40,716 nt of DNA, taken from IMG/VR virus record IMGVR_UViG_3300044724_002056, positions 1 through 40,716 of that record; one strand, written 5' to 3'. The DNA is from a virus. Taxonomy: Duplodnaviria > Caudoviricetes. Position numbers and translations under genes: made by a program. The notes beneath the pieces are model-generated. The model saw only the letters and a list, made by a program, of their open reading frames with translations, was not told where the DNA came from and ran no database searches. Shown here piece by piece: positions 215 through 40,716 of this stretch. Position 1 is the stretch's first letter; the number at the start of each line of letters is the position of its first letter.

Positions 215-894
215 TGATTAAATTTAAAAAGTTTATGACTGAGGGTGTGGATGACCCTGCGATATTTAAAGCAGTTTTTCTGGCAGGCGGGCCAGGAAGC
301 GGTAAGTCCTTCATTGTTGGAAAAACGGGCCTCCCTGCCCTCGGTCTGAAAGTTGTCAACTCTGACGATGCGTTTGAAGCTGCAATGAAAAAAGCAGGAA
401 TGACAATGAAACCTGACGATATCTTCTCGGTCAAAGGTCAAGATATTCGTGGTCGTGCAAAAGCACTAACAGGTAAAAAACAAGCAATGTTTATTAAAGG
501 TCGTTTAGGTTTGGTTATTGACGGAACTGGTAAAGACTTCGAGAAAGTTAAGAAACAAGTAAAGTCAATGAAAGATTTAGGTTATGATGTTGCAATGATA
601 TTTGTTAACACCGACCTTGAAACTGCAATTGAACGTGACAAGACACGTGAACGTACACTAGGTGAAGTAGGAGTAACTAAGTACTGGAAAGAAGTTCAAC
701 GAAACATTGGTGCATTCCAAACTATGTTTGGTAAGAAAAATATGTTGATTGTTGATAACTCAAACGGTAAAGACTATCAGAAAGAAACTCTACGTGCATA
801 TCGTGATGTCACAAAATTCTTAGATAAAGAACCTGATAATGCCAAAGCAAAAGCGTGGATTAAACAAGAACGTGAAAAGAAAAAGAGGACTTAA
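214..894 (+). CDS. Zeta-toxin/AAA_33-like P-loop kinase with a T4 capsid-targeting-like N-terminus
   Basis: Walker A AGGPGSGKS, VNSDD, Walker B-like LVIDGTG and lid-like RDKTRER; begins MIKFKKFMTE. Confidence 0.8.
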   Translation: MIKFKKFMTEGVDDPAIFKAVFLAGGPGSGKSFIVGKTGLPALGLKVVNSDDAFEAAMKKAGMTMKPDDIFSVKGQDIRGRAKALTGKKQAMFIKGRLGLVIDGTGKDFEKVKKQVKSMKDLGYDVAMIFVNTDLETAIERDKTRERTLGEVGVTKYWKEVQRNIGAFQTMFGKKNMLIVDNSNGKDYQKETLRAYRDVTKFLDKEPDNAKAKAWIKQEREKKKRT

Positions 895-905
895 AAGTCC
901 TCTTT
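882..905. terminator. Probable bidirectional intrinsic terminator between convergent genes
   Basis: AAAGAGGACT-TAAA-AGTCCTCTTT perfect 10-bp stem with A-rich left flank and T-rich right flank. Confidence 0.75.
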
Positions 906-920
906 CCTTTCTATGATATA

Positions 921-1130: not shown

Positions 1131-1167
1131 AGATTTCTCCTCTGTCACTTTATTGTAACAGTAAGTG

Positions 1168-1175: not shown

Positions 1176-1179
1176 TGTT

Positions 1180-1392: not shown

Positions 1393-2017
1393 GCCTTTTC
1401 TTTGCGTGAATTTTAACATTTTTAGGAATAGGAATCTTAATGTTGTTATGAGAATGATACAAGTGAAACTCTACATTGGAAAACTCTTTAAACATACTAG
1501 TCCAGATAGGTCTCCAGTTGTTTGCAAGTCTTACTGTGTTTGGAGTAGAACGGTCACTCTCTAATAGTAAGTCAGTAAAACTACCTAGATTCATATCAAA
1601 GATACTGTCAAATCCATAGATGTGAACTTCGTCTGCTCTCATTTTATTACAAGCATAATGAACTGCCATATGACCACAATTAAAGTTAGTCGCTGCCATT
1701 CTCTTGTCACCGTTGATAGCGGCATACTCAGGCACGTGAGGATAGAATCCTTTTATCAAGTGTGAGTATTTCATATAGAATGTTCCAGATTGTTCCATCC
1801 AGACCTTGGGTCTTGTTCCAAGAATCCAGTCATACATATCTAATTGTATACGACCTTCTTGAAGTGCCTTCATCATTTTGAAGTCAACCATACAAGTTGC
1901 ATACACTTCATTTCTTGGTATTGCGAATGGTGGCATATTACATATCAATAATCTGCCAGGCGTACCACGTTCAAACATATAAGCGTGGTCACCATTACCT
2001 AGAACATTTACTCTCAT
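1382..2017 (-). CDS. MptE/sialyltransferase-fold (GT29/GT42-like) putative transferase
   Basis: NVLGNG at the N-terminus, ICN, CMVD, NCGHMAVHYA and VHIYGFDS motifs are typical of this Rossmann-like family. Confidence 0.55.
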   Translation of the reverse strand: MRVNVLGNGDHAYMFERGTPGRLLICNMPPFAIPRNEVYATCMVDFKMMKALQEGRIQLDMYDWILGTRPKVWMEQSGTFYMKYSHLIKGFYPHVPEYAAINGDKRMAATNFNCGHMAVHYACNKMRADEVHIYGFDSIFDMNLGSFTDLLLESDRSTPNTVRLANNWRPIWTSMFKEFSNVEFHLYHSHNNIKIPIPKNVKIHAKKRLDK

Positions 2018-2418: not shown

Positions 2419-2621
2419 TATGATTTCCCAAAATGGTTTTTACAAACTTCTAGTTTGTCTTCTGCTTCAGCAATCTTAGCGATTTCTTTTTCAATAGTTT
2501 CTACTATGTCACCGTGTTCTCCGATACCGACAGAATTTCTTACATAAACTAAAACATTTGCTTTAGCAACTTCTATTTCACCCTCTAGTTTCTTAACTAG
2601 GGCTTTAATTAAATAATTCAT
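2418..2621 (-). CDS. Small conserved phage coiled-coil protein
   Basis: Coupled ORF with VGIGEHGDIVETIEKEI, a motif I recognise from aquatic phage hypotheticals. Confidence 0.7.
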   Translation of the reverse strand: MNYLIKALVKKLEGEIEVAKANVLVYVRNSVGIGEHGDIVETIEKEIAKIAEAEDKLEVCKNHFGKS

Positions 2622-3264
2622 TTATCTGACTCCTTATTACGTCATTTCCCTTTTTACCAGTATGATGGATAATCTTAGGGTTCTTCACTTGTATATTATC
2701 TATGTAGTCTAATCTTAAAGTGTTATATGTATGAGGCATAGGTTTAATACAAGATAACTTCTTGAGTGCGTCACCTCCCATCATAAGATATAATACTTCT
2801 TGGTCTCCTTGTACTGGATTACGAATACATTCGTCTGCCCACGCACGAAGGATATTAGGTGTTCCTTCTACCGCAACTACACCAGAGTTATACCATTCTC
2901 CGAGTTCATCTCTACGAGTTGACCACGGTCTATCTTTGACCATACCAAGTTTACCTTTTTCGGTCATATCAAATATAGATTCTATATTATCGGTTACTTC
3001 ACAATCAGTATCTAACCAACAAACCTTTTTAACACCGTCTAATTTAGTTGCGTCCAGAATCGCACGAGGTTTTTTGAACCAACCTTTTGCTTCACTCTTG
3101 ACATCAATAACTAAATCAATACCTTCAATCTCACGCATTTCTTTGGACACACCAAAGTCCGCAAGTACTAAAGGAGTAGTATTATGTTTACGATAGTTAT
3201 GCACAAACCAAGGTAATTGCCATTCGGTGTTCTTATCACACCCTGTTAGAAATACTTCAAGCAT
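2605..3264 (-). CDS. GT-A fold glycosyltransferase (GT8-like)
   Basis: WFKKP, WLDTD (DxD), YNSGV, GDQEVL and IIHHTG motifs. Confidence 0.8.
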   Translation of the reverse strand: MLEVFLTGCDKNTEWQLPWFVHNYRKHNTTPLVLADFGVSKEMREIEGIDLVIDVKSEAKGWFKKPRAILDATKLDGVKKVCWLDTDCEVTDNIESIFDMTEKGKLGMVKDRPWSTRRDELGEWYNSGVVAVEGTPNILRAWADECIRNPVQGDQEVLYLMMGGDALKKLSCIKPMPHTYNTLRLDYIDNIQVKNPKIIHHTGKKGNDVIRSQINELFN

Positions 3265-3904
3265 TGATAATCTTGTATCCTTCTTTATAATTGTGTTTTG
3301 CCTGACATCCTACTTCTGTTTGAATCGTAGTGAAACTATCTCTTGCTTCAGCAACGAAAGGATAGTATTCTTGTAGATACGGAAAAGTATCTAGATTTAA
3401 ATATATGTCTGTAGGTCTTGCGTGGGTTGAGGCAGCACCGACCAAACGTTTTCCACCAGACGGTGTAATCATATAAGCGTGAGCGCCTGGAAAGTATCTT
3501 TTAGTTGTTAGTTGATTGATTCCTATAGTTGGTGGTTTATTCCATTGACCATAAGACGGAGCACCAACATTCATTGCATATAAAAATGGCACATTGGGTA
3601 GAGGTGCTACTATCACCGCATCGTGTTCAAAGATTGCGTAAGTATCATTACTCTCTCCGCATTGTTTCCACAACGAGTAATGCGATAGGAATGCAGAAAT
3701 ACAATTTAGATTTCTAGAAAATCTTTCTTCAAATCTGTTAGGGTCAATACCCTCTTGTTTTAATAACTTGATTGGGTCATCATTAGGAGTTATTGCTTTA
3801 AACTTTTCAACTTCAATACCATTACGTTTACCAGAAGCAATACAACGTTCCGCAACTTCTACTGATTGTGGATTATCTAATAATGTAATTACAAATGCTT
3901 TCAT
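3257..3904 (-). CDS. Glycosyltransferase family 25-like
   Basis: Starts MKAFVITL (ATGA overlap); FLSHYSLWKQC, IFEHDA, GAHAYMITP and PTD motifs. Confidence 0.8.
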   Translation of the reverse strand: MKAFVITLLDNPQSVEVAERCIASGKRNGIEVEKFKAITPNDDPIKLLKQEGIDPNRFEERFSRNLNCISAFLSHYSLWKQCGESNDTYAIFEHDAVIVAPLPNVPFLYAMNVGAPSYGQWNKPPTIGINQLTTKRYFPGAHAYMITPSGGKRLVGAASTHARPTDIYLNLDTFPYLQEYYPFVAEARDSFTTIQTEVGCQAKHNYKEGYKIINA

Positions 3905-4614
3905 TTTGTTGTGGTTGACTTCAACCCTTTCTGTATTGTTGTATAATATGGATATACGACTTGCAACCAAGGAAACAATTGTTTACACATTAATGCATCG
4001 TTTGGCCACATTCCTATATCTTTCACCTTATCTATAAGTTTCTTTGCACCCTTGGGTGATATCATATATGCAGAATTACCTGCAAGACCTTGAGGTACGT
4101 CCCAGTCATCTACTGTAGGAACTCCTTGAAGTCCCATTGTTTTCTTTACTTGTTCGTCAAATAGGTTTGCTCTACGTGTCGCACCTATTGGATTGTTGAG
4201 ACCAAGTATACCACCTTTCCACTCTAAAGTCAAGGGGTGTGGGTCAAATGTTCTAATAAATAATGCATCGTGTTCTAGAACAACAATAGTTTCATCTAGG
4301 TCTATTGCTTTTTGCCAACACCTCATATGAGATATCATACACGCAACACGGTTATCGTGACTCGCAGTTTCGTATCGTGTAAGACGTAATCCTGTATTCA
4401 TATCAAGACCGTTCTGTTCAGGTTTGACAGGATATGTCCACTTGACACCTTTTAGATTTACAGACTCAAGACCTTCGTTAATAGTATTAGGAACGGTTGC
4501 AGGAAGAATAATAGGTTCTAGTTTAGATTCGGTTTTCTTGATAGATTCAATAACGTGACGAGTAGCAACAGTTGCTTCGTGGTTATTGATTAAACTAATT
4601 ATGAAGGCTTTCAT
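3901..4614 (-). CDS. Glycosyltransferase family 25-like
   Basis: MKAFIISL; ACMISHMRCW, VLEHDA, GNSAYMISPKGAKKL and PND motifs; tandem paralogue of 3257-3904. Confidence 0.8.
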   Translation of the reverse strand: MKAFIISLINNHEATVATRHVIESIKKTESKLEPIILPATVPNTINEGLESVNLKGVKWTYPVKPEQNGLDMNTGLRLTRYETASHDNRVACMISHMRCWQKAIDLDETIVVLEHDALFIRTFDPHPLTLEWKGGILGLNNPIGATRRANLFDEQVKKTMGLQGVPTVDDWDVPQGLAGNSAYMISPKGAKKLIDKVKDIGMWPNDALMCKQLFPWLQVVYPYYTTIQKGLKSTTTK

Positions 4615-5353
4615 CAACATCTCTTACATACTCCCATCTCTCAGATAGATAACAACCACCGTGATAACTTTCGTGGTAAAACCCAAAGGGTTCGGATAGT
4701 ATTTGATACCACCCCTCTTCTGCACTCTTTAATTGTTTGTCTTTATATAGACTATCTACTAAGTCAGTGTCCCAACATTCTCTGGGATGAATTATTAATG
4801 CATCATTAATATAATAGGTGGTCTCTTCACCCATTTCCTTAAGTTTATTAAAGTCGTGAGTACCATAATAATTCATACAATTGAATCCAATCGGAATCAT
4901 TCGGTCATAGGAATCATCAATCAATCCTTTCCAATCAATCTGGTCAGATACAATCACATCAAAACGAGTACGAATAATCATATCGTATTCTTCAGGAATT
5001 GACTTCATCATTTCGTTATGAATCAGAAGTTGTTTATGCCAGTTTGCAGAAGCGTATGCGTGTTTCAACTGACTATGGTCTTTACCTTCCTCTTCATATT
5101 CTTTTATCATTTTTGGAAACACATCTCGTCTTAATACACTTGCATTATCAGGATATGCTTCGGTATCAAAGACTGGATGATATAGATTCTCAGGGTCATC
5201 AAAGTAGTAATCTACGGTGGTATCCACCGTGTTTTGACCATTCCACGAACCAGTAAACATTTTGTCGTGCGGAATTATTTGTTGTGTTCTATCAATCCAC
5301 TTCTGGTCACAAAATTCATTCCATCTACCAGATAAACATAATGCAGTTTTCAT
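4595..5353 (-). CDS. Putative glycosyltransferase-like protein
   Basis: MKTALCLSGR start, YDMIIRTRFD and IND motifs as in GT-associated proteins of capsule and phage clusters. Confidence 0.55.
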   Translation of the reverse strand: MKTALCLSGRWNEFCDQKWIDRTQQIIPHDKMFTGSWNGQNTVDTTVDYYFDDPENLYHPVFDTEAYPDNASVLRRDVFPKMIKEYEEEGKDHSQLKHAYASANWHKQLLIHNEMMKSIPEEYDMIIRTRFDVIVSDQIDWKGLIDDSYDRMIPIGFNCMNYYGTHDFNKLKEMGEETTYYINDALIIHPRECWDTDLVDSLYKDKQLKSAEEGWYQILSEPFGFYHESYHGGCYLSERWEYVRDVDESLHN

Positions 5354-6694
5354 TTACCAACTCAATAGATATCTTTCCAAATCTTCAGGTGTTCCAAGTC
5401 CCCACATATCTTTTACTTCGTGGGTGTGAATATTCTTACCATCTTCGATTGATTGATTATATACAGGACAAACATAAAACTCATTGTTTACACGAATATC
5501 TTTTTCAATCATTTGATTTGCATACTTTACATAATCACTTCCGTGTTTCCAATAATAGAAACCTACTGTTGCATTATTACTAATTGGATTCTTTTCTGCA
5601 ACTTCAACAACCAATCCATTATCACCTGTCTTTGCATACGACCATTTAGGATGGGTTGCTTTGAAAGTAACAATACCACCGTCAGCTTTACGTTCATTCA
5701 TTTTATACATAAAGTCCAGAGGATTCCATTCTACATATTGGTCAGAGTTTGCAATAAAGAGTGGTTTGTCATTATCAATATATTCTTTTGCAAGTAATGT
5801 CGTACAGGCAGCACCTTCAGTAATACCGTCAACTTCTACAATTGTGCAATTAGGTGCAATCAAATTTAACATAGAATCTAAATTGTATTCTTTTCTATGT
5901 GACTTTTGTACAATAAAAATATAGTTTGCTTCTAGTCCAAGATTCTCTACTACCTTTTGAATCATTGGTTTACCATTAACATCAATTAAAGGTTTGGGAA
6001 AAGTATATCCTGCTTCAGCAAAACGTTTACCTGCACCTGCCATAGGTATCAACACATTTAGATTATCGTCTTTCCATTTAAGTTTTGAATATGATTCTTC
6101 ACTTTCAATCCTATCAATAAGACTAATATTGGTTTCATCTGGAGACGAAACTCTGATAACTCTTGCACCAGAATGATATGCGGAAGAAAGTCCTGTCGGT
6201 GAATCTTCAATGATTACCGTATCTTCAGGTAAGACTCCCATTTCAGACATTGCTTTCCACCAAATCTCTGGGTGAGGTTTTGGATTGTCTACATCCCAAT
6301 TACTTTTAATAACATCAAGATATGGTCTTATCATAAGTTGGTCAATGCAATTATTTACAGTATTACCGATTGCATTAGAACAAACTCCAACCTTATATCC
6401 TTTATCTTTTAATTCATTAAAGAGTTCAAGAAGTTCACTACTACTTTTTATTGTTTTCATTTTAAGCATAGTGATTGCTTGTTTTCTCAGAGCAATTTTA
6501 TTCTTCTCGTGAGGTGCAACATTATATTTAATTAATTTTTGTTCTGTAGTAAGACCATCATACTCTAAGGTATGTTCTTCTGGACTTATCTCAGGATATC
6601 CATTTTTTGACAATGACTCATTCAATGCATCAAAATGTATTTGTTTTGTATTGACCAGAACTCCGTCTAAATCAAATAAAACTAGTTTTGTCAT
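5354..6694 (-). CDS. Bifunctional HAD phosphatase + sugar-phosphate nucleotidyltransferase
   Basis: N-terminal FDLDGVL, CSN, KPHPE, IEDS (HAD); C-terminal VLIPMAGAGKRF..PKPLI, ANSDQ, AEKNPIS, GLGTPEDL (NTP transferase). Confidence 0.88.
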   Translation of the reverse strand: MTKLVLFDLDGVLVNTKQIHFDALNESLSKNGYPEISPEEHTLEYDGLTTEQKLIKYNVAPHEKNKIALRKQAITMLKMKTIKSSSELLELFNELKDKGYKVGVCSNAIGNTVNNCIDQLMIRPYLDVIKSNWDVDNPKPHPEIWWKAMSEMGVLPEDTVIIEDSPTGLSSAYHSGARVIRVSSPDETNISLIDRIESEESYSKLKWKDDNLNVLIPMAGAGKRFAEAGYTFPKPLIDVNGKPMIQKVVENLGLEANYIFIVQKSHRKEYNLDSMLNLIAPNCTIVEVDGITEGAACTTLLAKEYIDNDKPLFIANSDQYVEWNPLDFMYKMNERKADGGIVTFKATHPKWSYAKTGDNGLVVEVAEKNPISNNATVGFYYWKHGSDYVKYANQMIEKDIRVNNEFYVCPVYNQSIEDGKNIHTHEVKDMWGLGTPEDLERYLLSW

Positions 6695-7308
6695 TTAGTC
6701 ACCGCTATAATGTATGTGTCCCCACAATTAGTTTCTTTTCTTCGGTCATATACAGTTTTCTCATAACCGTCCAATGTGTTCATAAAACGAATATGTTTCA
6801 TCATATCGTATCTATCAGGTTTACTTGTTAACCAAGGATGTGCAAGTTCACTTTGATTCATTTTATCCATTGGCCAAACATCTTCAATAAAATAAACACC
6901 ACCTTTATTAACAAAAGGAATAATATTTTCAAAAGTTAATCGGTTTGCTTCTGGCCAATGACCACCATCGTCAATCACAAAATCAAACTTTACGTCACCC
7001 CATTCGTTTTTCATTTTCACACCAAGAGATGCGTCCATTGAATCTGCCTTAATCCACTTGACTCGTTCCTCACTTAGAATGTCAAGGTTTTCAGGTTTAG
7101 TCCTAACAAAGATATCAATCGTATAGATTGTTGCGTTAGGAAAGTATTCGTGAAAAGCACGTGTAGACGCACCCTTGAATGTTCCTACTTCAAGAATATT
7201 AAGAGGTTCTTCTCTCACATCTTCAAAGTAAGGTTCGTAGTCTTTGTAATAATGATGTTTCTCTGTTCCTTTATCACAATCGTATTTGTCAAATAGTTCT
7301 TTAAGCAT
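6691..7308 (-). CDS. SAM-dependent (sugar) O-methyltransferase, MycE/Methyltransf_24-like
   Basis: Start MLKELFDKYDCDKG; HHY, ILEVGT, IDDGGH and GGVYFIEDV motifs. Confidence 0.82.
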   Translation of the reverse strand: MLKELFDKYDCDKGTEKHHYYKDYEPYFEDVREEPLNILEVGTFKGASTRAFHEYFPNATIYTIDIFVRTKPENLDILSEERVKWIKADSMDASLGVKMKNEWGDVKFDFVIDDGGHWPEANRLTFENIIPFVNKGGVYFIEDVWPMDKMNQSELAHPWLTSKPDRYDMMKHIRFMNTLDGYEKTVYDRRKETNCGDTYIIAVTK

Positions 7309-8541: not shown

Positions 8542-9100
8542 ATACGGTCACATCCTTTTTATCATACTCTACTCTCTCCACATCTGTAGATAATTCTAGA
8601 GTCTTAAGTACTTCAATGTTATCTTTACATTTAGTTATTCTTTTTCTATTCTTATATATGAAACTCATTATACACTGATTCTGTAATTGAATCTGAGTAA
8701 ACATATTGTCTTGATTCTTATACCAATCATAATTAGGATATGAAATATCAAAACCACCACACTCATTCCACCACTTCCAACACTCGTAGTCATTTCTTAT
8801 TACCATAACAATAGGATAATTATCATAGTAATAATAATTCATTTGTGTAGCCAATGTGTGCGACTTTATTAGTTTAACACCTTCACCAGAAAAAGGCAAG
8901 TCCCAATTACTCCTTCTGAAATCAAATTCCATTTGGGGGTCAAAGTATGCACCTCCGTGAACTAATCCGTTATGATGAGTATATGACCTCTCTTCTGTAT
9001 TATCGGTCTGGTCAAAATCACTTGATGTGTGAATACTGTTTGCAACACTAGACCACCGACTGCCTGGCGCTCCAGTCATTAATAGATAATTACCTTTCAT
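8516..9100 (-). CDS. P-loop sulfotransferase/kinase-like protein
   Basis: N-terminal LMTGAPGSRWSS degenerate P-loop, LIKSH and VMVIR, resembling the sulfotransferase fold. Confidence 0.5.
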   Translation of the reverse strand: MKGNYLLMTGAPGSRWSSVANSIHTSSDFDQTDNTEERSYTHHNGLVHGGAYFDPQMEFDFRRSNWDLPFSGEGVKLIKSHTLATQMNYYYYDNYPIVMVIRNDYECWKWWNECGGFDISYPNYDWYKNQDNMFTQIQLQNQCIMSFIYKNRKRITKCKDNIEVLKTLELSTDVERVEYDKKDVTVYVYRPKST

Positions 9101-9725: not shown

Positions 9726-10371
9726 AAGTTCTCACCTTCAATGGATTAATTTCATCTGTCGGCCCTGTACCAGAGTCAGGACTAAACACAAACAGAGTGA
9801 CATCTTCTCCTTGATTACACATAAAGTTATGTAATACATTTCTTTCCATAATCCAAGCGTCTCCTTTTTTGATAGGAAACGTTACACCATTGTCAAGTTC
9901 AATCTCACCTTTACCAGAGAGAATAAGACCGATTCGTTGACTTGGGTGAGTATGCAGGGTTTGTGTCATTCCACGAGGGAAATGAACATAGTTGACTACA
10001 GGTAATCCTAGTCTGCCTGGGTTTGAAGCGGTAGTGTTTGTGCCTCCGTCCATATAAGATAGATTACCTCTAGGAAGACCTTTAGGTACAAACAAACGGT
10101 CATCATTCATTGATAAACCATAAAACTTAATATGAACAAACGTACCATACACTTCTGCGGTAAATGGATTTACTGTTTGTCCAGTAAAATCATTATCACT
10201 AACCGACCAAGAATCATCTACACTAACACAACAATCTAGTGCCATTAAGAAACTTGTTCCGTCAAAGTTCTTATTGACGTATTCATTATAATCACCTTTT
10301 TGGACGTGGACATCAAAATTCCAGATATCTCTAACCTTATAGGTTTCGCCATTTTCTATGTTCTTCATCAT
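9703..10371 (-). CDS. Cupin-domain protein
   Basis: Metal-binding HTHP...ILSGKG and NVLHNF cupin motifs in the C-terminal half. Confidence 0.8.
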   Translation of the reverse strand: MMKNIENGETYKVRDIWNFDVHVQKGDYNEYVNKNFDGTSFLMALDCCVSVDDSWSVSDNDFTGQTVNPFTAEVYGTFVHIKFYGLSMNDDRLFVPKGLPRGNLSYMDGGTNTTASNPGRLGLPVVNYVHFPRGMTQTLHTHPSQRIGLILSGKGEIELDNGVTFPIKKGDAWIMERNVLHNFMCNQGEDVTLFVFSPDSGTGPTDEINPLKVRTYVGQQRP

Positions 10372-10420
10372 AATCCTGTATAGGTTTCGCCATTTTCTAT
10401 GTTCTTCATCATAATCCTGT
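10338..10420. repeat. Perfect 41-bp tandem duplication spanning a stop/start junction
   Basis: TATAGGTTTCGCCATTTTCTATGTTCTTCATCATAATCCTG occurs at 10338-10378 and 10379-10419. Confidence 0.92.
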
Positions 10421-10966
10421 TGCCTTTATAATTTCCTTGGGTATATAGGGTATTTTCATTCTTTCTGGGTGCCACACAATTGCACAAATATTATCTTTAA
10501 TCCAAGATTCACATTCACCAGTTACATCTGTACATAATTGTACACTATCTGGTGGTATTTTGTCAATAGCAATCGTATGAAAACTATTTACTTTTACTAA
10601 ATGTGGTTGGTATTTACTGTATACTATATGTTCAACATCAAAATGATTGTTTTTACCTGTTTTTGTTTTACCACCAAGAATCTCTGTAAGTAAAAATGCA
10701 CCGTGACATATACCAAGAATAGGTTTATTTAGTTTGACCATTTCGGTTGCCAGAGATATTTCTGTAGTGATACGAATTTCCTCATTCCCTCCACCAGTAA
10801 TGATGAGAAGGTCTAAGGATTCTGCAAGAGATTGATAATCTAAGTCGTCACGATTTGGGACAGGAATGAGTTCGTGACTCTTTAATAACCGATACCAGTT
10901 ATGTTCTAAAGAGTCATGAACTTGTCTATTGTGCGTGAGGACTCGTTGAGTGAGTCCTATTTTCAT
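10409..10966 (-). CDS. Class I glutamine amidotransferase / peptidase C26, gamma-glutamyl-CDP-amidate hydrolase (Cj1417)-like
   Basis: IGLTQR start, ITGGG, PILGICHGA (catalytic Cys), VNSFH, WHPER (His-Glu). Confidence 0.82.
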   Translation of the reverse strand: MKIGLTQRVLTHNRQVHDSLEHNWYRLLKSHELIPVPNRDDLDYQSLAESLDLLIITGGGNEEIRITTEISLATEMVKLNKPILGICHGAFLLTEILGGKTKTGKNNHFDVEHIVYSKYQPHLVKVNSFHTIAIDKIPPDSVQLCTDVTGECESWIKDNICAIVWHPERMKIPYIPKEIIKATGL

Positions 10967-11665: not shown

Positions 11666-11701
11666 TAGGATTCTCCTATCACTCTATTAATATATTAGTA
11701 T

Positions 11702-11709
11702 TATTTATA
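11702..11709 (-). promoter_or_regulatory. T4-type late promoter
   Basis: Exact TATAAATA in the intergenic gap, about 37 nt upstream of the ferritin-like gene. Confidence 0.75.
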
Positions 11710-11778
11710 CAATTCTTAGTTTAAAATATCTATTATTTTGGTACTTAAAGTACCCACATCTGAGAAAATATAAACGTT

Positions 11779-14117: not shown

Positions 14118-14302
14118 TAATGACTCACAAACTGGTTAATCAACCAAAACATAAATATCATAAAACCAAACACAAGTACCTGTATGACAGATGCGTATAC
14201 AACCTGTTTCATAGGGTGTACTTCAGGTAATTTCTCCATAATACTTTCATTCGGAGATAGATTAACTGCTCTTAATATTTTCTTTTCGTTCTCAGGAATC
14301 AT
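14117..14302 (-). CDS. Small membrane protein
   Basis: 61 aa, coupled to both neighbours, one C-terminal hydrophobic helix. Confidence 0.65.
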   Translation of the reverse strand: MIPENEKKILRAVNLSPNESIMEKLPEVHPMKQVVYASVIQVLVFGFMIFMFWLINQFVSH

Positions 14303-15063
14303 AATGTCATATTATTGTAAATTCTATTTTTTGCAACATTGAAATAATGTTCATCTAATTCAATTCCTATAAATTTTCTATTAGTGTTAAGGCAAGCAAC
14401 ACCAGTTGAGCCACTACCCATACAAAAATCTAAAACAGTTTCTTTTTCATTTGTATAAGTTTTTATTAAGTATTCCATCAAACCTATTGGTTTTTGAGTG
14501 GGGTGATATTTGCCCTCTGATTCAGCAGTTTTGTGATAAATAACACTTCTTGGTTTTCTTAAACCGCTTTTATTTTCTTTTTTTATTTTATTTCTTTTTG
14601 TTAGTCCACCTTGCAAAACTTGGATATTATTATGACCTATACCTTTATTATAGGGTTTGCCTTTCGTATGCTGTGGATTGTATTTCATTGGATTTTTACT
14701 TCCTTGTGCTGAACCGCCAAAACTAAAAACACAAATATCTTCGTGGGTTTTAAGCGGTTGATAGTTTGCGTGTACAAAATTACTTGCTTTGCTTTTTTCC
14801 CAAACCCAACAATATTTAAACCATTTTAGATTAGAATTTATTAATGCTGTCGTGAATGGTTGACTTGATGTCATTACTATAGCTGCGTCATTTTTTACAA
14901 TTCTTTTCACTTGTTTCCACATAGAATCAAGACAAATTATGCTATCCCATTTGCAACGAGTAGTTCCATAAGGCATATCAACTAATACCATATCAATCGA
15001 TTTATCAGGTATTTCATTCATTTTTAATAAACAATTACCTATTGTTAAATTAATATTATTCAC
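14299..15063 (-). CDS. DNA amino-methyltransferase (N6-A/N4-C, beta class)
   Basis: DMPY catalytic motif IV variant, WVWEK, HPTQKP, VLDFCMGSGSTG motif I, IGIEL. Confidence 0.9.
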   Translation of the reverse strand: MNNINLTIGNCLLKMNEIPDKSIDMVLVDMPYGTTRCKWDSIICLDSMWKQVKRIVKNDAAIVMTSSQPFTTALINSNLKWFKYCWVWEKSKASNFVHANYQPLKTHEDICVFSFGGSAQGSKNPMKYNPQHTKGKPYNKGIGHNNIQVLQGGLTKRNKIKKENKSGLRKPRSVIYHKTAESEGKYHPTQKPIGLMEYLIKTYTNEKETVLDFCMGSGSTGVACLNTNRKFIGIELDEHYFNVAKNRIYNNMTL

Positions 15064-16271: not shown

Positions 16272-16283
16272 ATCATTTCTCCA

Positions 16284-17798: not shown

Positions 17799-17816
17799 AC
17801 AAGTATATAGGGAATT

Positions 17817-18419: not shown

Positions 18420-18425
18420 ATCCTT

Positions 18426-19742: not shown

Positions 19743-20425
19743 TTAATGTTTCCTCGTTCAACCATTTCCTTTGTCATTATATAGTCTCTGACAAACTTTG
19801 ACCGAACAATATCTGCCCACCCAAATTCAATGGTTCTAAAATTATTCATAACCTCTATGATATTCATAAAGTCAAGAATGCCTTTTCTATCTGATTCTTT
19901 AGTTAAATCAGATTGATAGTAATCACCACTAAAGATGATACGACTGTTGTGTCCGACTCGTGTAATTATAGAGTCCAACTCGTGATATGTACAGTTTTGC
20001 ATTTCGTCAACCAAGATAACACAATTGTCTAGAGTTGTCCCTCTGATATATGAAGTAGAGAGAAACTCAATTTTATTTTGTTGTTCTAGTTGTTCGTATG
20101 CTTTCTTTTCATTAAAGAGTTCTGTTGCGATTGCACGATAAGGTGCGGTATAAGCGTCAACCTTTTCCTCAATACTGCCAGGCAGATAACCCATTTCTCT
20201 TGTTGGAACAACACTTCTTACGATAACAAGTTTCTCTTGGTCGTATTTTCTGTCCATAACTTCTTGGAGTGCAAGATACATACCAACAAAAGTTTTACCT
20301 GTTCCAGCAGAACCACATAAAACTAAATGGTCTCCTTCTTCCCAAGAATCATATGCGTGTTGTTGATTTTCTGTTATAGGTTCATAGGATAACAAGTGGT
20401 CAATCTTAAGACGTTTCATTGTCAT
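19739..20425 (-). CDS. phoH: PhoH-family ATPase
   Basis: GSAGTGKT, GYLPG, YIRGTT, VDEMQN, ITRVG, GDYYQSD, DIVRS. Confidence 0.95.
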   Translation of the reverse strand: MTMKRLKIDHLLSYEPITENQQHAYDSWEEGDHLVLCGSAGTGKTFVGMYLALQEVMDRKYDQEKLVIVRSVVPTREMGYLPGSIEEKVDAYTAPYRAIATELFNEKKAYEQLEQQNKIEFLSTSYIRGTTLDNCVILVDEMQNCTYHELDSIITRVGHNSRIIFSGDYYQSDLTKESDRKGILDFMNIIEVMNNFRTIEFGWADIVRSKFVRDYIMTKEMVERGNIK

Positions 20426-20655
20426 GATTTGATGTTGTGTCCTCTTCCAGAACCTTTACCGATTTTTTGCATTAGGTTTTTCCAGTCTCCACTTGTTTTA
20501 TTAATAATATTACCAGTATGACTGACTAGATTGGGGGCACCAATCTGTTGTTGTTCGTCAGGATTTTTTTCTAAACGTTCTTGTAGTTTATCATAACTGC
20601 ACATAACCTCTTCGGTTTCTCCAGTTTTATTATTGATAATTGTGTATAGTGGCAT
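20422..20655 (-). CDS. Small conserved T4-like phage protein (FmdB-like N-terminus)
   Basis: MPLY..NKTGE start; this type is commonly found just upstream of phoH in T4-like phages. Confidence 0.7.
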   Translation of the reverse strand: MPLYTIINNKTGETEEVMCSYDKLQERLEKNPDEQQQIGAPNLVSHTGNIINKTSGDWKNLMQKIGKGSGRGHNIKS

Positions 20656-26681: not shown

Positions 26682-28658
26682 TTATCCCTCACAAGCACGA
26701 CATTCATCGTCTTCGTTTGTTTCTACTGGTTGATTAAAAAATACCATAAGTTCGTCATAACCCCCAACATACTCACCTTCAATATAGATTTGAGGGACTG
26801 TTTTGACTTTACGACCTGTAACTTCGGCAGCAGTTTTTCCAATATCTTTCAGGTTGATATAATCATAAGGAATACCTCTTAACTTGAGTTCTTCCTTTGC
26901 CATAGAACAGAACGGACAATCTAGTTTACCATAAATTATGGTGCGAGTATCACCTTGAAGGGCAACACGTTCTACTTTTTCCGATACGTTCTCTGCTCTT
27001 TGTTTTGCTTCTGTACGTAGATAGTATAGACCCTTGAGTCCTTTCTTCCACGCATTCAAATGCACTCTGTTCACATAAGATTTCTCTGAACCAGCTGGGA
27101 AGAACAGGTTAACACTCTGTCCTTGACAAATAAACTCTTGACGCTCTGAAGCGTGAGTGATTACCCAGTCTTGGTCAAGTTCATCCGCAGTCTTAAAGAT
27201 TGCTTTCTCACCTTCAGTTAGTTCAGGAAGGTGTTGAACAGAACCTTTATTCGTAATGATTGAAGTCCAAGTGGAATCATTATTTATATCTTTTTCGTTT
27301 AGTAACTCAGTTAAATATCTATTTTTTACCAAGAAACTTCCTGCACGTGTTCTATGTGTATATGCATTCGCTTTCAATGGTTCAATAGAAGGACTGGTTG
27401 ATAGAATCACACCAGACGAGGCATTAGGAGCAATCGCAAGAAGGTGTGAGTTTCTTTTACCAGAACCAATACCGTCAGGATACTCTCCTCGTTCCTCTGC
27501 AAGTAATTCAGTTTCTTTATGTGCTTCTTCATTGATATGTTGGAATACAGTTCTGTTGATATCCCTTGCAGCTTCACTCTCCCACGCAACTCCGTGTTTC
27601 TGTAATAGAGAATGGAATCCCATTGCACCAAGACCTAAACTTCTTTCTCTTTCTGCGGAATACTTTGCTCTAGTAATAGTATCAGGTGCATTCTCAATAA
27701 AGTATTGAAGCACATTATCAAGCATACGAATGATATCACGAACAATAGTAGTGTCCTTCCATTCGTCATAGTATTCTAGATTGAGTGACGATAAACAACA
27801 TACCGCAGTTCTATCGTCAGAGGTTGGTAGGTGAATCTCATTACATAGATTACTACCGTGAATCTTTAGTCCTTTGTCTTTTAGTGGTTGAGGTAAACCT
27901 TTGTTTGCTGTATCAATAAAGTTTAGATAAGGTTCACCTGTACGGAAACGAATCTCTAGAAGACGTTCCCAGAGTTTACGTGCATTAACAGTTTCTTTTA
28001 CTTCGTTGTTCTTTGGGTCACGCAAATCAAAGTCTTCGTTATTGATTACTGCTTCCATAAACTCGTCAGTAATATTGATTGCGTTATGTAGGTTTAATGC
28101 TTTACGTTGTACGTCACCTGTAGGAATACGCATATTCATAAACTCTACAATATCTGGATGAGAGATATCCATATAAGCAGCATAAGAACCTTTTCTTGTT
28201 TTACCTTGACGGTATGCAATCATATCTGCGTCAACAGTATGTAGAAAAGGAATCGGGCCAGGTGCAATGTCTGATACGGTTCTTACGTCAGACCAGTGTC
28301 CACCGACACCACCACCATAAACGGATAACCAACGTAGTTCGGATGAGTGACCGATAAGTCCTTCTAGAGTGTCAGGAACATAAGTAAGGAAACACGAGAT
28401 AGGCATTCCTTTACTTTTTGTGTCGTGACCGTTGGGTGCATTGGATAATACAGGAGACGCAAACATAAACCACTTATTAGACACATAGTCGTATAGACGT
28501 TGTGCGAGTTCTTCGTCTCCATTACTCCACGCTGTTGATGCCCTTGCGAATCCTTCTTGAGGACTCTTTTCATAATCATTAAGGTAAAATTCTTTTAACA
28601 TTCCAACTGCGTATTCCGCTAGCAGTTTGTCCTTTTTCTTATCAATTTTTAGGGGCAT
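26682..28658 (-). CDS. nrdA: Class I ribonucleotide reductase alpha subunit with a fused glutaredoxin domain
   Basis: PISCF, SNLCNE, VCCLSS, AIAPNASS, GLYYLR, then Grx (CPFC...TVPQI...VGGYDEL) and terminal CRACEG; no N-terminal ATP cone. Confidence 0.96.
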   Translation of the reverse strand: MPLKIDKKKDKLLAEYAVGMLKEFYLNDYEKSPQEGFARASTAWSNGDEELAQRLYDYVSNKWFMFASPVLSNAPNGHDTKSKGMPISCFLTYVPDTLEGLIGHSSELRWLSVYGGGVGGHWSDVRTVSDIAPGPIPFLHTVDADMIAYRQGKTRKGSYAAYMDISHPDIVEFMNMRIPTGDVQRKALNLHNAINITDEFMEAVINNEDFDLRDPKNNEVKETVNARKLWERLLEIRFRTGEPYLNFIDTANKGLPQPLKDKGLKIHGSNLCNEIHLPTSDDRTAVCCLSSLNLEYYDEWKDTTIVRDIIRMLDNVLQYFIENAPDTITRAKYSAERERSLGLGAMGFHSLLQKHGVAWESEAARDINRTVFQHINEEAHKETELLAEERGEYPDGIGSGKRNSHLLAIAPNASSGVILSTSPSIEPLKANAYTHRTRAGSFLVKNRYLTELLNEKDINNDSTWTSIITNKGSVQHLPELTEGEKAIFKTADELDQDWVITHASERQEFICQGQSVNLFFPAGSEKSYVNRVHLNAWKKGLKGLYYLRTEAKQRAENVSEKVERVALQGDTRTIIYGKLDCPFCSMAKEELKLRGIPYDYINLKDIGKTAAEVTGRKVKTVPQIYIEGEYVGGYDELMVFFNQPVETNEDDECRACEG

Positions 28659-29485: not shown

Positions 29486-30081
29486 CGAGTTATCTCCCCT
29501 GTAGAGAAATACACCGTTTGATTAGAGTTCATGTGTATTCCTTTATAGATATCTAATCCAAGTATTTCTGTAATAGGATAGGATTCAGATTCTACGATTC
29601 TAATTTTGTCGTCTTTCTTTACAATGTCTTCGCATTGTGTTGTTATGGTATCATATTTAATACGATAGACCCCAGGCGACATTTGTTTGTCATCTAGGAT
29701 AAACCATTGGGATTCTTCAGCAAGAACGTCAAGAATGTCAATCCCAGTCTCTTCGTGGATTTCCATTAATCTCTTATCATTTAATTCACCGTGTTCTTTG
29801 ATAAGAGCGAGTGCTGCTCCATAACGTGCAATAACTGATTGACCGCCAGGCACTTTTGCCATTAGACGTTTTAGATTAAATACGAGACGATGAAACGGTG
29901 TATAGTGAGAACGATATGCCTCACGGTCATCAGTACTATTCGTATTGAATTCCTTATTCTTTTGACCGTCTTTGTCTATAATACCTGCCTTGAATGCTTC
30001 GGTCTTCTCAAACGGAGTGACCAATAGTTTCAAGAAACGAATCGTATAAACTAAGTCTGCTGCTGATTTTAATATTCCCAT
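29482..30081 (-). CDS. Conserved T4-like phage late protein
   Basis: DLVYTIRFLKLLVTPFEKTEAFKAGIIDKDG and YTPFHRLVFNLKR motifs; late promoter immediately upstream. Confidence 0.75.
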   Translation of the reverse strand: MGILKSAADLVYTIRFLKLLVTPFEKTEAFKAGIIDKDGQKNKEFNTNSTDDREAYRSHYTPFHRLVFNLKRLMAKVPGGQSVIARYGAALALIKEHGELNDKRLMEIHEETGIDILDVLAEESQWFILDDKQMSPGVYRIKYDTITTQCEDIVKKDDKIRIVESESYPITEILGLDIYKGIHMNSNQTVYFSTGEITR

Positions 30082-37251: not shown

Positions 37252-39945
37252 TTATCTACCTAATCGTTTTAATAAATTCTTAATAGAGTTTAAATCCTTT
37301 GATATCACTTTTTGAAACTTCTCTTTATCTTGAGGTTTCTTTAATACATTAAACATTTTATCAACTTTCTTTGCGTCTGCTTGAGATATCTTACCTTTCT
37401 TACCAGAAGGGAATTCAATCTCACCACCTTTAGGTAAGTCAGTTGCTTTACGTATTTGCATTAATACATTTTTAGATGCAGCTTTACGGTCAGCGTCTGT
37501 TGCCCTAATATCTTTAAAACCTTTAGGTTGAAAGTCAGGGTCAGAACTCATACCACGCATTGCGTCACGTCTTGCACGAGATTCTTTCATGCTGTTTGCT
37601 TTTTGTTGTGCCTTTTTATATGCACTGGGGTCTTTCTTTTTAATTTCCTGACCAACTTTTTTAAGAGTTTCTAGTTCACTTTTTGAAGGTTTATAATTTT
37701 TATTTCTTTTGAATTTACTTTTTATGTTTTCTATTGCTTTTTCAGTTTTACCAATAATATCAATTCCTGCCATTTCGGATGCTATAAGACCTATAAATGC
37801 GACTGCATTTACTCCCATAAAAGCTGTTAGTCCAGTTAAGAGAAAACTCGAAACATCTTCGTCAAGGTTTATAGATTCTTTTAAAGGTTTCTCACCTTTC
37901 TCTTTTTTAGAGATTGCAATCGCAGCTTGTTGAGCAGGAGAGACTGCTTCTTTTTTATTCAAGTTCTGAACAATCTTTTGAATGTTATCGCCTGGCTTAT
38001 AGTTCATGACTGCCTTACCTACGTCTGTAAGTTTGCCCTTCTTGTCATACATCATGTCAATCATTTTCAAGTCTGCTTTTGATAACTTTTCTTCTAATGA
38101 TTCTTTGTTTATCATTTTTTGATTTGAAAGTTTACCAATCAATGATAATACTGATTGTGACATTTGTAAGATATCTTCGTATTCTTTATTATACTTTTTA
38201 TCTTTGAGTTCCTTGTCACCCATGTTTACAATCTTCTGATAATTTTTCTTAATCTTTTCTGCATCTTTTGAAAGTTGTTTCATTGCATTGATTTCTTTAT
38301 CAGTGACTTCTGAAATGACTTCTTCGTTTGCTAATCGTAATGCTTTTGCTACATTCTTATTTTTTGACAAACCTTTTTTGATTGCTTCGATTCTTTTAAC
38401 TGCACCTGTCATATTACCACCCATTGAAGATGCAATGTCTATTGCTTTTCTAATTTGGGCTTGTTGAGACACTTCCATAATGTTACTAAATGATTTACCT
38501 TCTTTTAGTGGTTTATCATATCCACCACCGTGGTCTTCAGCAGTTTTAAGTTTTGCAATTTGATTAACCAAAGGTCTTAAATCTACTCTCCACTCTGGTT
38601 TTTTCTTGTCAAGTACCAAACCAATTTTATAAGCACTTGAACCTTGTTCAGGTGTTCCTGTTTCTAATTTAGATGTGATTTTATTTTTTCTCATAAAAGC
38701 TTGAGTTAGTTTCAATGCTTTTTCATAATCTTTTTTATTATCAGGTGAAGTAATTCTATCACCTTTACCACCTCTAAATTGAATATAGAAATCTACAATT
38801 CGTGGATAGTCTTTAATCATAGTAGGTTTAAATGCTTCTGTTGCAAACGCTTTTTGCATTACAGTTTCAATTTCTTTCTTCTTACCAATACCTACAACTT
38901 TTTCTAAGTCATATGAATTAAGTTTTTTCATACGTGCAACACGAGCGGCAAAAGGTTTCATAGATTTAATTTTATGCATTTGGTCAGCAACTTTCTTACC
39001 TTCTACTCCAGTATGATAATTAAGAACTTCGTTAACAGATTCTACTTGAGTATCAATATAATCTGCCATACCGTCAAGTTTATCAACTGCAACAGCAACC
39101 TTATTTGTCCACCACGTTGGTAGAGATTCTTGGTCACCTAACTTACCAAGTTCTGTATTCATTTTTTGAAGTGCAGACATAGCAGTCTTGACTTTATTCT
39201 TCATAGACTCTACATCATTATGACCGTCTTCATTAACTGATTCTTTTTTTCCTGCGTACTGTTTGAGTCGTCTTTCTCTCTCACGTTGCTTTCTAGCACG
39301 TTCTTCTTCATTATCTTTTTGACCCATCTTCATTTGACGCATTCTGCGTTCACGTTCTGCTTGTTGTTTTGCTTTTAAATCTGCCTTTTGTTTGTCAGTC
39401 ATTTGAGAAGGTGATACGTATTGTCCGTCTTCATTCATAGATAAAAGTTTCTTCGCTTTTGCACGGTCATGATATCTAAAAGAATATTTCTTGTTGTTGC
39501 CACGTTCCATAGCTTGAACAATATATCCAGTTGGACTTACCTTAATGACTTTTCCAAATAACTTATCACCACGTTCAGTTTCGTAGAAGTCCATTTCTTG
39601 ACCGACTTTTACTTGACCTTTAGTTTCTGTACCCATACCTTTACGTGCAAGAGTTCGATAGTTCTCTTTGAGTTCAGGTTTCTCGTGAGTATAACCCATT
39701 TTCTTCATACGCACGTGGTCTTCAGGTTTATTTGCTTTATAACCTTTACCAGTCTTTGGGTCATACATCATATGGGGTTCAAAGTCACTCTCTGCAACAC
39801 GTTTTGCAGTTGCAGTAGCGATTGCCATTTTCTTATCCATAGGCATATCTGGGTTGTCTTTCTCCATTGCTTTCGCAATCTCCTCACGTTTTTTCTTTTC
39901 CGCAGGAGTGAGAGTTTTTTCTATTAGTTGTTGGAACGATATCAT
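37252..39945 (-). CDS. Large (897 aa) modular charged protein, putative internal head polyprotein
   Basis: Starts MISFQQLIE; short modules separated by recurring ESVNE/LKE/ESLEE/LDE sites. Confidence 0.65.
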   Translation of the reverse strand: MISFQQLIEKTLTPAEKKKREEIAKAMEKDNPDMPMDKKMAIATATAKRVAESDFEPHMMYDPKTGKGYKANKPEDHVRMKKMGYTHEKPELKENYRTLARKGMGTETKGQVKVGQEMDFYETERGDKLFGKVIKVSPTGYIVQAMERGNNKKYSFRYHDRAKAKKLLSMNEDGQYVSPSQMTDKQKADLKAKQQAERERRMRQMKMGQKDNEEERARKQRERERRLKQYAGKKESVNEDGHNDVESMKNKVKTAMSALQKMNTELGKLGDQESLPTWWTNKVAVAVDKLDGMADYIDTQVESVNEVLNYHTGVEGKKVADQMHKIKSMKPFAARVARMKKLNSYDLEKVVGIGKKKEIETVMQKAFATEAFKPTMIKDYPRIVDFYIQFRGGKGDRITSPDNKKDYEKALKLTQAFMRKNKITSKLETGTPEQGSSAYKIGLVLDKKKPEWRVDLRPLVNQIAKLKTAEDHGGGYDKPLKEGKSFSNIMEVSQQAQIRKAIDIASSMGGNMTGAVKRIEAIKKGLSKNKNVAKALRLANEEVISEVTDKEINAMKQLSKDAEKIKKNYQKIVNMGDKELKDKKYNKEYEDILQMSQSVLSLIGKLSNQKMINKESLEEKLSKADLKMIDMMYDKKGKLTDVGKAVMNYKPGDNIQKIVQNLNKKEAVSPAQQAAIAISKKEKGEKPLKESINLDEDVSSFLLTGLTAFMGVNAVAFIGLIASEMAGIDIIGKTEKAIENIKSKFKRNKNYKPSKSELETLKKVGQEIKKKDPSAYKKAQQKANSMKESRARRDAMRGMSSDPDFQPKGFKDIRATDADRKAASKNVLMQIRKATDLPKGGEIEFPSGKKGKISQADAKKVDKMFNVLKKPQDKEKFQKVISKDLNSIKNLLKRLGR

Positions 39946-40166
39946 TATGCTAAATCCTTGTCGTGGTTCAGACCACCTTTCTTCTTTTTAACTATAAAGG
40001 CATTTACCCTTGCATATCCCCATTGTTGAGGAGTAGTGCCTGGCCTGTGACCAGTCTTCCAAGCGGCAACGCCACGGTTGTAAACTTTTTTGAGAGTACC
40101 ATAAGAAATACCAGACTTATCTGCTTTCTTTTTTAGTGCTTCGTCTGCTTCGTATAACTTAATCAT
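39945..40166 (-). CDS. Small basic protein (DUF5824-like)
   Basis: Probable start MIKLYE at 40166; LKKKADKSG..LKKVYNRGVAAWKTGHRPG..QQWGYARVN. Confidence 0.7.
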   Translation of the reverse strand: MIKLYEADEALKKKADKSGISYGTLKKVYNRGVAAWKTGHRPGTTPQQWGYARVNAFIVKKKKGGLNHDKDLA

Positions 40167-40716
40167 TTGGTCTTGTCTTTCTATTTTTTGTTCTTGCACG
40201 TGCAAGTCTGGCACGGTCAAGCATAGTGTCGTGTTTTGTTTTATCCTGTTCTTTCTCTCTTTTAATTCTGTCTTTTGCTATTTGTACTGCGTCTTCTTGT
40301 TCCATAGGAGTATCTTTCTTATACTTCTTCAGAAGTTTAGTAGTACCTTCTTCTCCTGCACCCTTTTCCTCACCATACATATCTTTGAATGATTTGGTAT
40401 ACTTGGACGGTTTTGTCTTTGCGGTTGCATCGCCTGGGGCAGGTTTATATGCAGATTGGTCATCATCTGCTTTCTTACCGTGTTTCTTAAAGTGTGTGTC
40501 TCTCTTACTCTTAGTAGTTTTCTTTAGACCTGCAAAATACTTCTTAGGTTGAGTCCCTTCTTTGTCTTTAATGTCAGGGTCTTGAACTGCTTTCTTTTCT
40601 ACAAGTTCTACTGCGTCCAACCACTTACGAACTTTGCGGTCACCACATTCTACGATAACATAGTTAGAACCTAATACAGATACAATACCTACTTCATCGC
40701 TTTCTTTGATAACAAC
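40159..40716 (-). CDS. 3' part of a gene truncated by the window edge; resembles the C-terminal region of T4-like phage cytidyltransferase-domain proteins
   Basis: Frame is open to the window end (VVIKESDEVGIVSVLGSNYVIVECGDRKVRKWLDAV...), followed by a Lys-rich PKKYFAGL...KTKPSKYTK region. Confidence 0.6.
   Translation of the reverse strand, partial: VVIKESDEVGIVSVLGSNYVIVECGDRKVRKWLDAVELVEKKAVQDPDIKDKEGTQPKKYFAGLKKTTKSKRDTHFKKHGKKADDDQSAYKPAPGDATAKTKPSKYTKSFKDMYGEEKGAGEEGTTKLLKKYKKDTPMEQEDAVQIAKDRIKREKEQDKTKHDTMLDRARLARARTKNRKTRPND

Follow-up and report, generated by a model that had tools for sequence, protein, structure and literature searches.

Why would a phage keep restriction-type sites in its genome only where one particular base stands beside them? 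Phage genomes avoid restriction sites, and methylation that overlaps a site can block its cleavage. The stretch of DNA analyzed here (positions 1 to 40,716 of IMG/VR virus record IMGVR_UViG_3300044724_002056, referred to at its full length as the window) is a 40,716-base fragment of a marine T4-like phage carrying nrdA/nrdB, phoH, a lysin gene, and numerous glycan genes. Its NrdA protein is 78% identical to that of phage C48C1 and 67% identical to that of Methylophilales phage Melnitz. An original prediction, made from the letters alone, held that CCWGG and GGNCC occur in the window only when overlapped by GCC, and that a DNA modification in a GpC or GCC context shields them. We found that the window and many of its relatives share a footprint, i.e., a purge of palindromes from which copies reading G-CY (Y is C or T; the hyphen marks the start of the site) are exempt. 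A mark on G-C-[C/T] (GCY) very probably shields the surviving sites, and we consider it probable, with less assurance, that this mark is N4-methylcytosine (m4C), placed as G(m4C)Y by a D12-class methyltransferase at sites that cannot be avoided.

Expected site numbers were obtained from 300 codon-preserving shuffles of the window genes (61 open reading frames, 39,435 coding bases), with counts taken on both strands. The window contains 12 CCWGG sites, exactly those originally listed. All of them encode Pro-Gly, and each has G before it or C after it (both in six cases). Roughly 15 unflanked sites were expected and none was observed; in the codon-preserving comparison that the original prediction had proposed, HCCWGGD gave 0 strand-counts versus 30.8 +/- 5.6 in the shuffles (lowest shuffle, 14) and is thus far below expectation, while GCCWGG gave 18 versus 3.5 (highest, 9). 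As had been claimed, Gly is encoded by GGC in 10 of the 12 Pro-Gly pairs, and in the remaining two a G-ending codon (GGG or TCG) precedes the pair. The reservation that GGC and GGG might be generally common does not hold, since they make up 65 of the 809 Gly codons (34 GGG, 31 GGC). In Gly-Pro pairs, the Gly codon is always GGG or GGC (10/10), again as claimed. GGWCC is absent (0 versus 42.4 in the shuffles), and GGSCC is kept (22 strand-counts versus 6.3; highest shuffle, 20), with an 11th site that encodes Thr-Gly-Leu instead of Gly-Pro. This part of the argument is weaker than first thought, because the AvaII-type site is GGWCC and does not include GGSCC, whose persistence alone is no proof of shielding.

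Other words behave similarly. GGNNCC is present at two sites, both with GGC or GCC inside (4 strand-counts versus 57.6), and all three copies of CCCG read GCCCG, with HCCCG at 0 versus 33.6. No copy of GATC, CCGG, or CGCG was found (for CGCG, 36 were expected). The earlier impression that GC-containing palindromes are common is correct for TGCA (498 versus 439) and GCWGC (74 versus 79), but not for GCGC (8 versus 31), AGCT (56 versus 152), CTGCAG (0 versus 18), GTGCAC (0 versus 13), or CGCG; the word AGCC is also depleted (11 versus 75). The depletion of GATC, CCGG, CGCG, GGWCC, and CCWGG resembles known site avoidance by phages. Unlike the latter, it is conditional on a single flanking base and dictates rare codons at every Pro-Gly. 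Additional biases were seen in the window. CATG (15 sites) is strongly, though incompletely, avoided, and has T before or A after in 13 cases; TCGA (22), CACAG (4), and AGCC (11) are likewise strongly but incompletely avoided; Trp-Pro is encoded as TGG CCA in 6/6 cases. Coordinates are collected in Table 1.

Table 1. Sites and genes discussed in the text (window coordinates, except where G041 is indicated).
Feature	Position	Strand	Remarks
CCWGG	292..296		Pro-Gly; G before (GG-CCAGG)
CCWGG	1956..1960		Pro-Gly(GGC); G before and C after
CCWGG	3486..3490		Pro-Gly(GGC); G before on plus strand
CCWGG	9063..9067		Pro-Gly(GGC); flanked on both sides
CCWGG	10016..10020		Pro-Gly(GGC); G before on plus strand
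CCWGG in phoH	20178..20182		Pro-Gly(GGC); flanked on both sides
CCWGG in nrdA	28258..28262		Pro-Gly(GGC)-Pro; overlaps GGGCC 28255 and GCCCG 28254
CCWGG	29672..29676		Ser(TCG)-Pro-Gly(GGG); C after on plus strand
CCWGG	29846..29850		Pro-Gly(GGC); flanked on both sides
CCWGG	37991..37995		Pro-Gly(GGC); flanked on both sides
CCWGG	40039..40043		Pro-Gly(GGC); flanked on both sides
CCWGG	40433..40437		Pro-Gly(GGC); G before on plus strand
GGSCC (11 sites)	289, 327, 9682, 9761, 13321, 16543, 16687, 24872, 28255, 35503, 36111		10 encode Gly-Pro; 327 encodes Thr-Gly-Leu
GGNNCC (GGTGCC)	10468..10473		GCC inside
GGNNCC (GGCACC)	20536..20541		GGC inside
CCCG (3 words)	288, 326, 28254	-	all GGCCCG on minus strand; no further CCCG in window
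Glycan cluster	2605-19281	-	glycosyltransferase 25/8, sulfotransferase, NTP-transferase/HAD, radical SAM, carbamoyltransferase, cupin, glutamine amidotransferase
Beta-class N6/N4 DNA methyltransferase (PF01555)	14299..15063	-	amid glycan genes; 30% GC versus 36% in window
Aspartate decarboxylase	20655-20996
AMP-binding enzyme	23914-25197
D12-class/"Dam" methyltransferase (PF02086, E 1.8e-24)	G041 144637-145512		beside major capsid gene, in the slot of the G001 DruA gene

The footprint is not confined to the window. CCWGG sites are shielded without exception in the long records G001 (63/63), G002 (44/44), G005 (20/20), Melnitz (68/68), and G041 (43/43). The last of these, found by a search with the last gene of the window, is the closest complete relative (149 kb; its alignment with the window covers 32,542 bases at 76%, with the same gene order), and it contains no GGWCC, GATC, CCGG, or CGCG. 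Among 80 loci found with NrdB, CCWGG is fully shielded in 29 of the 49 that have three or more such sites; G003 and G004 have 51 of 156 and 45 of 143 sites shielded, respectively. Other surviving palindromes are flanked by G as well, both in G001 (CCGG, 9/9; CCATGG, 7/7; CTGCAG, 6/6; CTCGAG, 4/4; CTTAAG, 1/1) and in Melnitz (CCGG, 15/15; CTGCAG, 14/14; CTTAAG, 3/3; CCATGG, 2/4). When avoided palindromes were picked without reference to their flanks, survivors starting with CC or CT had G before or C after in 94/94 cases in G001, 71/71 in G002, 32/35 in G005, 35/46 in Melnitz, and 12/12 in the window, while palindromes starting with CA or CG showed no clear flank excess (8/34 in the window, 21/100 in G002). 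A preceding G does not rescue CATG either (4 of 15 window sites are flanked). The base before the shielding G is free, with YG as the only shield in 8 of the 12 window CCWGG sites and 32 of the 43 in G041. Because CC/CT survivors are G-flanked, CA/CG survivors are not, and the base before G is free, the exempt context is GCY with any preceding base. Two other contexts were rejected: general GpC shielding, since CA- and CG-starting palindromes are unrescued by a preceding G and GCGC, CGCG, GTGCAC, and TGCGCA are purged, and shielding by RGCY only, since the majority of shielded sites have YG. Of the context originally proposed, overlap with G-C is borne out by relatives and by other palindromes, but the context is GCY, not every GpC and not GCC alone.

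Several side observations concern the same genomes. Melnitz survivors that lack the G flank often have GC directly before the site (CCATGG, 2/2; CGWCG, 1/1; also CGWWCG), hinting that a bulky mark beside a site also shields it. Loci L005, L521, L541, and L613-L621 contain no CCWGG and allow CCGG; in these, Pro-Gly is encoded through CCG or CCC codons instead. A curli-type cluster (CsgF, CsgG, FecR, curlin repeats, adenylate cyclase) is found in G001, G002, G041, and Melnitz, has no match in G003/G004, and is probably a lineage marker.

The GCY words are themselves depleted. In the window, GCC and GCT reach 0.44 and 0.42 of their expected frequencies, compared with 0.86-1.08 in G003/G004, and rho of the GC dinucleotide is 0.65-0.72 in the window, G001, G002, G005, G041, G046, and G047, compared with 0.94 and 0.99 in G003/G004, both of which lack all four enzyme families considered. 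The rarity of GCC and GCT could be accounted for by a cost attached to the marked word. It is not expected if there were no mark at all and host nucleases with longer degenerate sites (e.g., HCCWGGD) or flank preferences merely spared G-flanked copies. The latter explanation, which we regard as unlikely, also has to contend with a one-base exemption that spans at least six unrelated palindromes in one genome (CCWGG, CCGG, CTGCAG, CCATGG, CTTAAG, and CTCGAG), and with cyanophages isolated on the same host, WH7803, that differ by gene content: S-PRM1 keeps 12 copies of G-CCGG in 80 kb, while S-PM2 and Syn33 keep 0. It draws support from phage P-HM1, in which 75 of 110 CCWGG sites are shielded and CCCWGG is absent without a known GCY enzyme, and from P-SSM2 and S-ShM2, where G flanks are in slight excess. 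An RGCY-based origin of the P-HM1 bias fails, as 66 of the 110 sites are YG-only.

A mark of a different kind, 7-deazaguanine on the G of GGC, was considered since GCC is GGC on the opposite strand and since phage CAjan, according to the part of the report available (PMC7544227), marks GA and GGC. However, G-CT sites (CTGCAG, CTTAAG, CTCGAG) are shielded, which a GGC mark leaves inexplicable; the GA-containing GATC and GGACC are absent, indicating that GA contexts give no shield; and QueC was not found in five relatives, including the complete G001. We rejected the CAjan-type mark as the least probable of the explanations considered.

Which gene would make the GCY mark? The original prediction directed the search to a methyltransferase or base-modification gene. 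A family scan of 54 window proteins revealed the beta-class N6/N4 enzyme as the sole DNA methyltransferase, and for this reason it was considered as the source of the shield. It has no match in G001, G002, or Melnitz, is absent from the corresponding place in G041, and has only distant matches among the loci compared. Its low GC content suggests a recent arrival, whereas recoding of every Pro-Gly requires long selection. Given the GC content and the absence from relatives that share the footprint, this enzyme is probably a recent bystander, and there is very little likelihood that it makes the shield. No candidate shared with the footprint-bearing relatives is present inside the window, and the gene likely lies outside of it.

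A candidate of this kind is present in G041, which carries a D12-class methyltransferase; searches of this genome found no DruA and no C5-methylase (TET and QueC were not searched there). A second occurrence is in five overlapping fragments, L582-L586, where an enzyme 90-92% identical to that of G041 is also encoded beside the major capsid gene. The 4-mer profiles of these fragments correlate with that of the window at r 0.90-0.98, placing all five in the top 13 of 629 ranked loci, and the fragments and the window are both scarce in CATG, TCGA, CACAG, and HCCCG. Their sites are those expected from the window (CCWGG, 20/20 shielded; GATC, 0; GGNNCC, 10/10 with GCC or GGC; CCCG, 5/5 as GCCCG). 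Judging from this composition, L582-L586 probably come from the window's own phage species. Among the 80 D12-enzyme loci compared, those with at least 61% identity are fully shielded in 18 of the 24 cases with three or more CCWGG sites, while none of 19 is at 47-55% identity.

In ten cyanophages (L316-L339, L444-L459), the "Dam" proteins share 38-43% identity with the G041 enzyme, GGCC is depleted, and the only two CCGG survivors read GG-CCGG; some of these proteins could therefore be cytosine methylases of the GGCC type and not Dam enzymes. The slot beside the capsid gene is occupied by a DruA-family and ParB-like pair in G001 (53619-55807) and by the D12-class methylase in G041, and the slot after the polymerase by C5-methylase/TET in Melnitz, the D12 enzyme in C48C1, or DruA in HTVC008M.

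The D12-class enzyme is not plausible as a GATC methylase, because the genomes concerned hold no GATC (0 in G041, L582-L586, and the window) and its score is below the Dam cut-off (TIGR00571, 78.5 versus 114.85 bits); C48C1, which carries a 70% homologue, keeps GATC. The enzyme matches PF02086 and is assigned to the alpha class by its motif I (FLGGG), which precedes a DPPY motif (ADPPY). Its best plasmid relatives are ~33% identical, and a HaeIII-family (GGCC) nuclease gene adjoins 3 of the 12 matches listed. The sole match in the PDB is 7m6b (E 1.6e-42), which we take to be M.CbeI. In the accessible parts of the respective reports, M.CbeI is annotated as a D12 adenine-specific enzyme and contains DPPY, yet makes m4C in GGCC (PMC3425538), and M.Ssp6803II makes GG(m4C)C (PMC6560206). 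The phage enzyme shares with M.CbeI, DmtB, and M.Ssp6803II, as these are described there, the D12 or "adenine-specific" label and FxGxG ahead of DPPY, and its predicted target, like that of the M.CbeI type, is the C after G within GGCC-like words. Unlike the M.CbeI type, it is phage-borne, has no nuclease partner that we could see, and is predicted to recognize three bases, GCY. We infer that it descends from enzymes of the GG(m4C)C type and that its specificity has loosened to G(m4C)Y; the sequence pattern would allow either C or its paired G to be the marked base, and the enzyme class points to C.

Published single-molecule real-time (SMRT) sequencing of marine myoviruses provides a point of comparison. 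The sections of Hiraoka et al. (PMC8919816) available to us report m4C at RGCY (nine viral genomes), VGCY, YGCYGC, and CCWGG, with enzymes nearest to M.Ssp6803II; in V32, whose enzyme is also nearest to M.Ssp6803II, 350 of 545 VGCY and 112 of 178 CCWGG sites were modified. Those genomes thus resemble the present ones in being marine myoviruses with m4C around GCY and M.Ssp6803II-like enzymes. All but three of the viral enzyme-motif pairs are given there as unmatched and, unlike here, these sections contain no link from marks to flank-conditional avoidance and no enzyme-motif match for these viruses.

Methylation of the outer C on one strand would be expected to block EcoRII-, MspI-, and PstI-type cutting. 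We propose that the phage purges many restriction-type palindromes through silent codon choice, and that CCWGG sites forced by Pro-Gly would survive only as G-CCWGG. There, the C of G-C-C/T would be methylated (m4C is predicted) by the phage enzyme encoded outside the window, and the mark, sitting on the first C of G-CCWGG on one strand, would block host nucleases of the CCWGG, CCGG, and CTGCAG types. Sites unable to overlap GCY (GATC, GGWCC), and those holding only Y-GC-R (CGCG, GTGCAC), would have to be removed outright. Other lineages seem to have arrived at this GCY shield by way of unrelated enzymes: Melnitz through C5-methylase plus TET, and G001/G002 probably through a DruA acyltransferase of the Mom-like kind.

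These unrelated enzymes raise the possibility that the window's shield, too, comes from a different gene within the remaining three quarters of the genome. This gene could be C5-methylase plus TET (yielding 5-methylcytosine, 5-hydroxymethylcytosine, and then glycosylated C), or it could encode a Mom-like acyltransferase of the DruA family. In Melnitz, the C5-methylase gene (PF00145) adjoins a Tet_JBP gene (PF12851) after the polymerase, and the footprint is identical to that of the window. Phage C5-methylase/TET (5mYOX) enzymes act on GpC[C/T], as stated in the available text of Burke 2021 (PMC8256090); the footprint context, GCY, is the same. A TET homologue is present in 65 of 80 viral loci with this C5-methylase, and 24 of the 25 informative loci are fully shielded. 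In G051, a relative identified through one of the window's genes, C5-methylase is present and 14/14 CCWGG are shielded. The PF00145-PF12851 pair was not found among the window proteins or in G001, and C5-methylase, unlike in Melnitz, is absent from G041. In C48C1, an unannotated Tet_JBP gene (49583-51001; L081/L082), possibly a thymine dioxygenase, is present in a genome without C5-methylase.

DruA comes into consideration through the complete G001, which has no C5, D12, N6/N4, TET, or QueC match. A DruA-family protein (PF14236) and a ParB-like gene are encoded beside its capsid gene, and a PF14236 gene is also present in G002. The predicted structure of the G001 protein (pLDDT 89) has a GNAT fold, with Mu Mom 8bv8 as the top match (Z 9.8, root-mean-square deviation 3.4, 164 aligned), effectively tied with ordinary GNATs, which lie within 1 Z of it; Foldseek retrieved nothing from the PDB for this model with an E-value up to 0.001. 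Phage records in GenBank that contain DruA homologues number 31, and the genes usually adjoin those for polymerase or clamp loader. The D12 gene is found in 10/10 DruA non-carriers and in 1/13 carriers, i.e., DruA replaces D12. In a blind test on cultured phages (80-120 kb samples, kinship ignored), the footprint was present in 4/13 DruA carriers versus 0/10 non-carriers (Fisher p 0.10, not significant), and GC depletion differed between the two groups (p 0.004). Among phages without unflanked CCGG, 8 DruA carriers keep 46 G-flanked copies and 10 non-carriers keep 2; CCGG avoidance is lacking in four carriers (S-SM2, Sf-CH8, S-SRM01, and S-B68), and shielding often fails in DruA loci with 53-65% identity (27/61 fully shielded). 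The G001 capsid-slot protein resembles Mu Mom (PDB 8bv8; PMC13219725, as far as its accessible text goes) in its modelled GNAT fold, and its carriers often show the footprint. Unlike Mom, which is described in that text as modifying adenine in SAS, DruA is predicted to place a GC-centered mark, and it was not found in the window's closest relatives.

For the window phage itself, DruA was set aside as the main candidate, since the complete G041 shows the footprint without DruA, and no PF14236 match was found in G041 or the window. None of the 62 and 73 DruA loci or the 80 C5-methylase loci is as near to the window signature as L582-L586, and G041 has neither enzyme. We therefore consider a different gene of this kind improbable, though it is the least improbable of the alternatives, and favor the D12-class enzyme as the source of the window's mark.

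A second footprint, with C after or G before the site, was observed in HTVC008M (120 kb; L280-L283, L462-L463) and Mosig (120 kb; L312-L315, L460-L461). It comprises GATC (71/71 and 14/14, respectively), GTATAC (11/11 and 9/9), and, in HTVC008M, GANTC (35/35); some GATCC could be forced by Asp-Pro. A second type of DruA-family gene, longer than the first, is present in both phages, and HTVC008M has, in addition, the first DruA type together with a G-CY bias (CTGCAG, 7/7).

A host orphan methyltransferase could place the mark during replication, which would be in line with a footprint common to phages with three different enzyme families and with the type II methylase encoded by the Melnitz host, as mentioned in the available portion of PMC9004378. 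Yet same-host cyanophages differ in footprint, and each complete footprint genome examined (G001, G041, and Melnitz) has its own candidate enzyme; in marine SMRT data, viral and prokaryotic motifs are rarely shared, according to the text of PMC8919816 at hand. We judge a host origin to be quite improbable.

Several observations weigh against G(m4C)Y methylation by the D12-class enzyme. No contig links the enzyme of L582-L586 to the window: two extension searches gained <2 kb, and rightward extension yielded only L264/L474, L413, and L414, ending short of the enzyme region. The five fragments are 93-99.6% identical to one another and so count as a single observation. In G041, 30 of the 94 listed non-core proteins were scanned against Pfam. 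Some homologues at 61-69% identity are found in loci that are not clean (L596, 5/14 shielded; L599, 0/3; L603, 3/7; L604/L605, 1/8 and 1/9; L623, 1/5), and C48C1, with its 70% homologue and a TET gene, has 63/80 sites shielded and 771 copies of GATC. The partial bias of P-HM1 is seen in a phage whose D12 homologue is 42% identical. G003 and G004 avoid no palindrome strongly and are 84% complete, which makes them weak controls. The motifs in the accessible SMRT data (PMC8919816) mostly read RGCY and DCCWGGH, not GCY and GCCWGG. Finally, the same footprint with three unrelated enzyme families also fits an unseen common cause.

The phenomenon is real and ordinary in kind, being site avoidance combined with overlapping methylation, with a precise twist in the flank-conditional rule; the proposed link to an enzyme is what the present analysis adds. 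Our search, which did not extend to subscription papers or the supplement of Pyle et al., turned up no publication describing site avoidance that depends on a flanking base, and none that treats DruA as a modifier of phage DNA. In the available part of their preprint, Pyle et al. (bioRxiv 2023.12.21.572611) consider GpC-limited marks unlikely to protect a genome broadly; the footprint suggests that such marks may suffice when the genome is recoded to fit. For the m4C motifs of marine myoviruses, which lack a matched enzyme in the text of PMC8919816 available, a D12-class candidate and a predicted motif can now be named. The footprint offers a sequence-only route to predicting the targets of uncharacterized phage modifiers, and Melnitz, S-PRM1, S-SSM7, HTVC008M, Mosig, and C48C1 are cultured phages relevant to such predictions. 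We tentatively suggest that marine T4-like phages may share a genome-wide recode-to-fit defense, in which restriction sites would be retained only where they overlap the GCY mark and this mark would be written by at least three swappable, unrelated enzymes (an N4-cytosine methylase mislabelled as Dam, C5-methylase/TET, and a Mom-like DruA acyltransferase), with a second DruA subfamily writing a C-C mark. If this is true, surviving sites would reveal the specificity of untested enzymes from sequence, many cyanophage "Dam" genes would code for cytosine methylases, and the DruA acyltransferase, as its model suggests, would make an acylated base.

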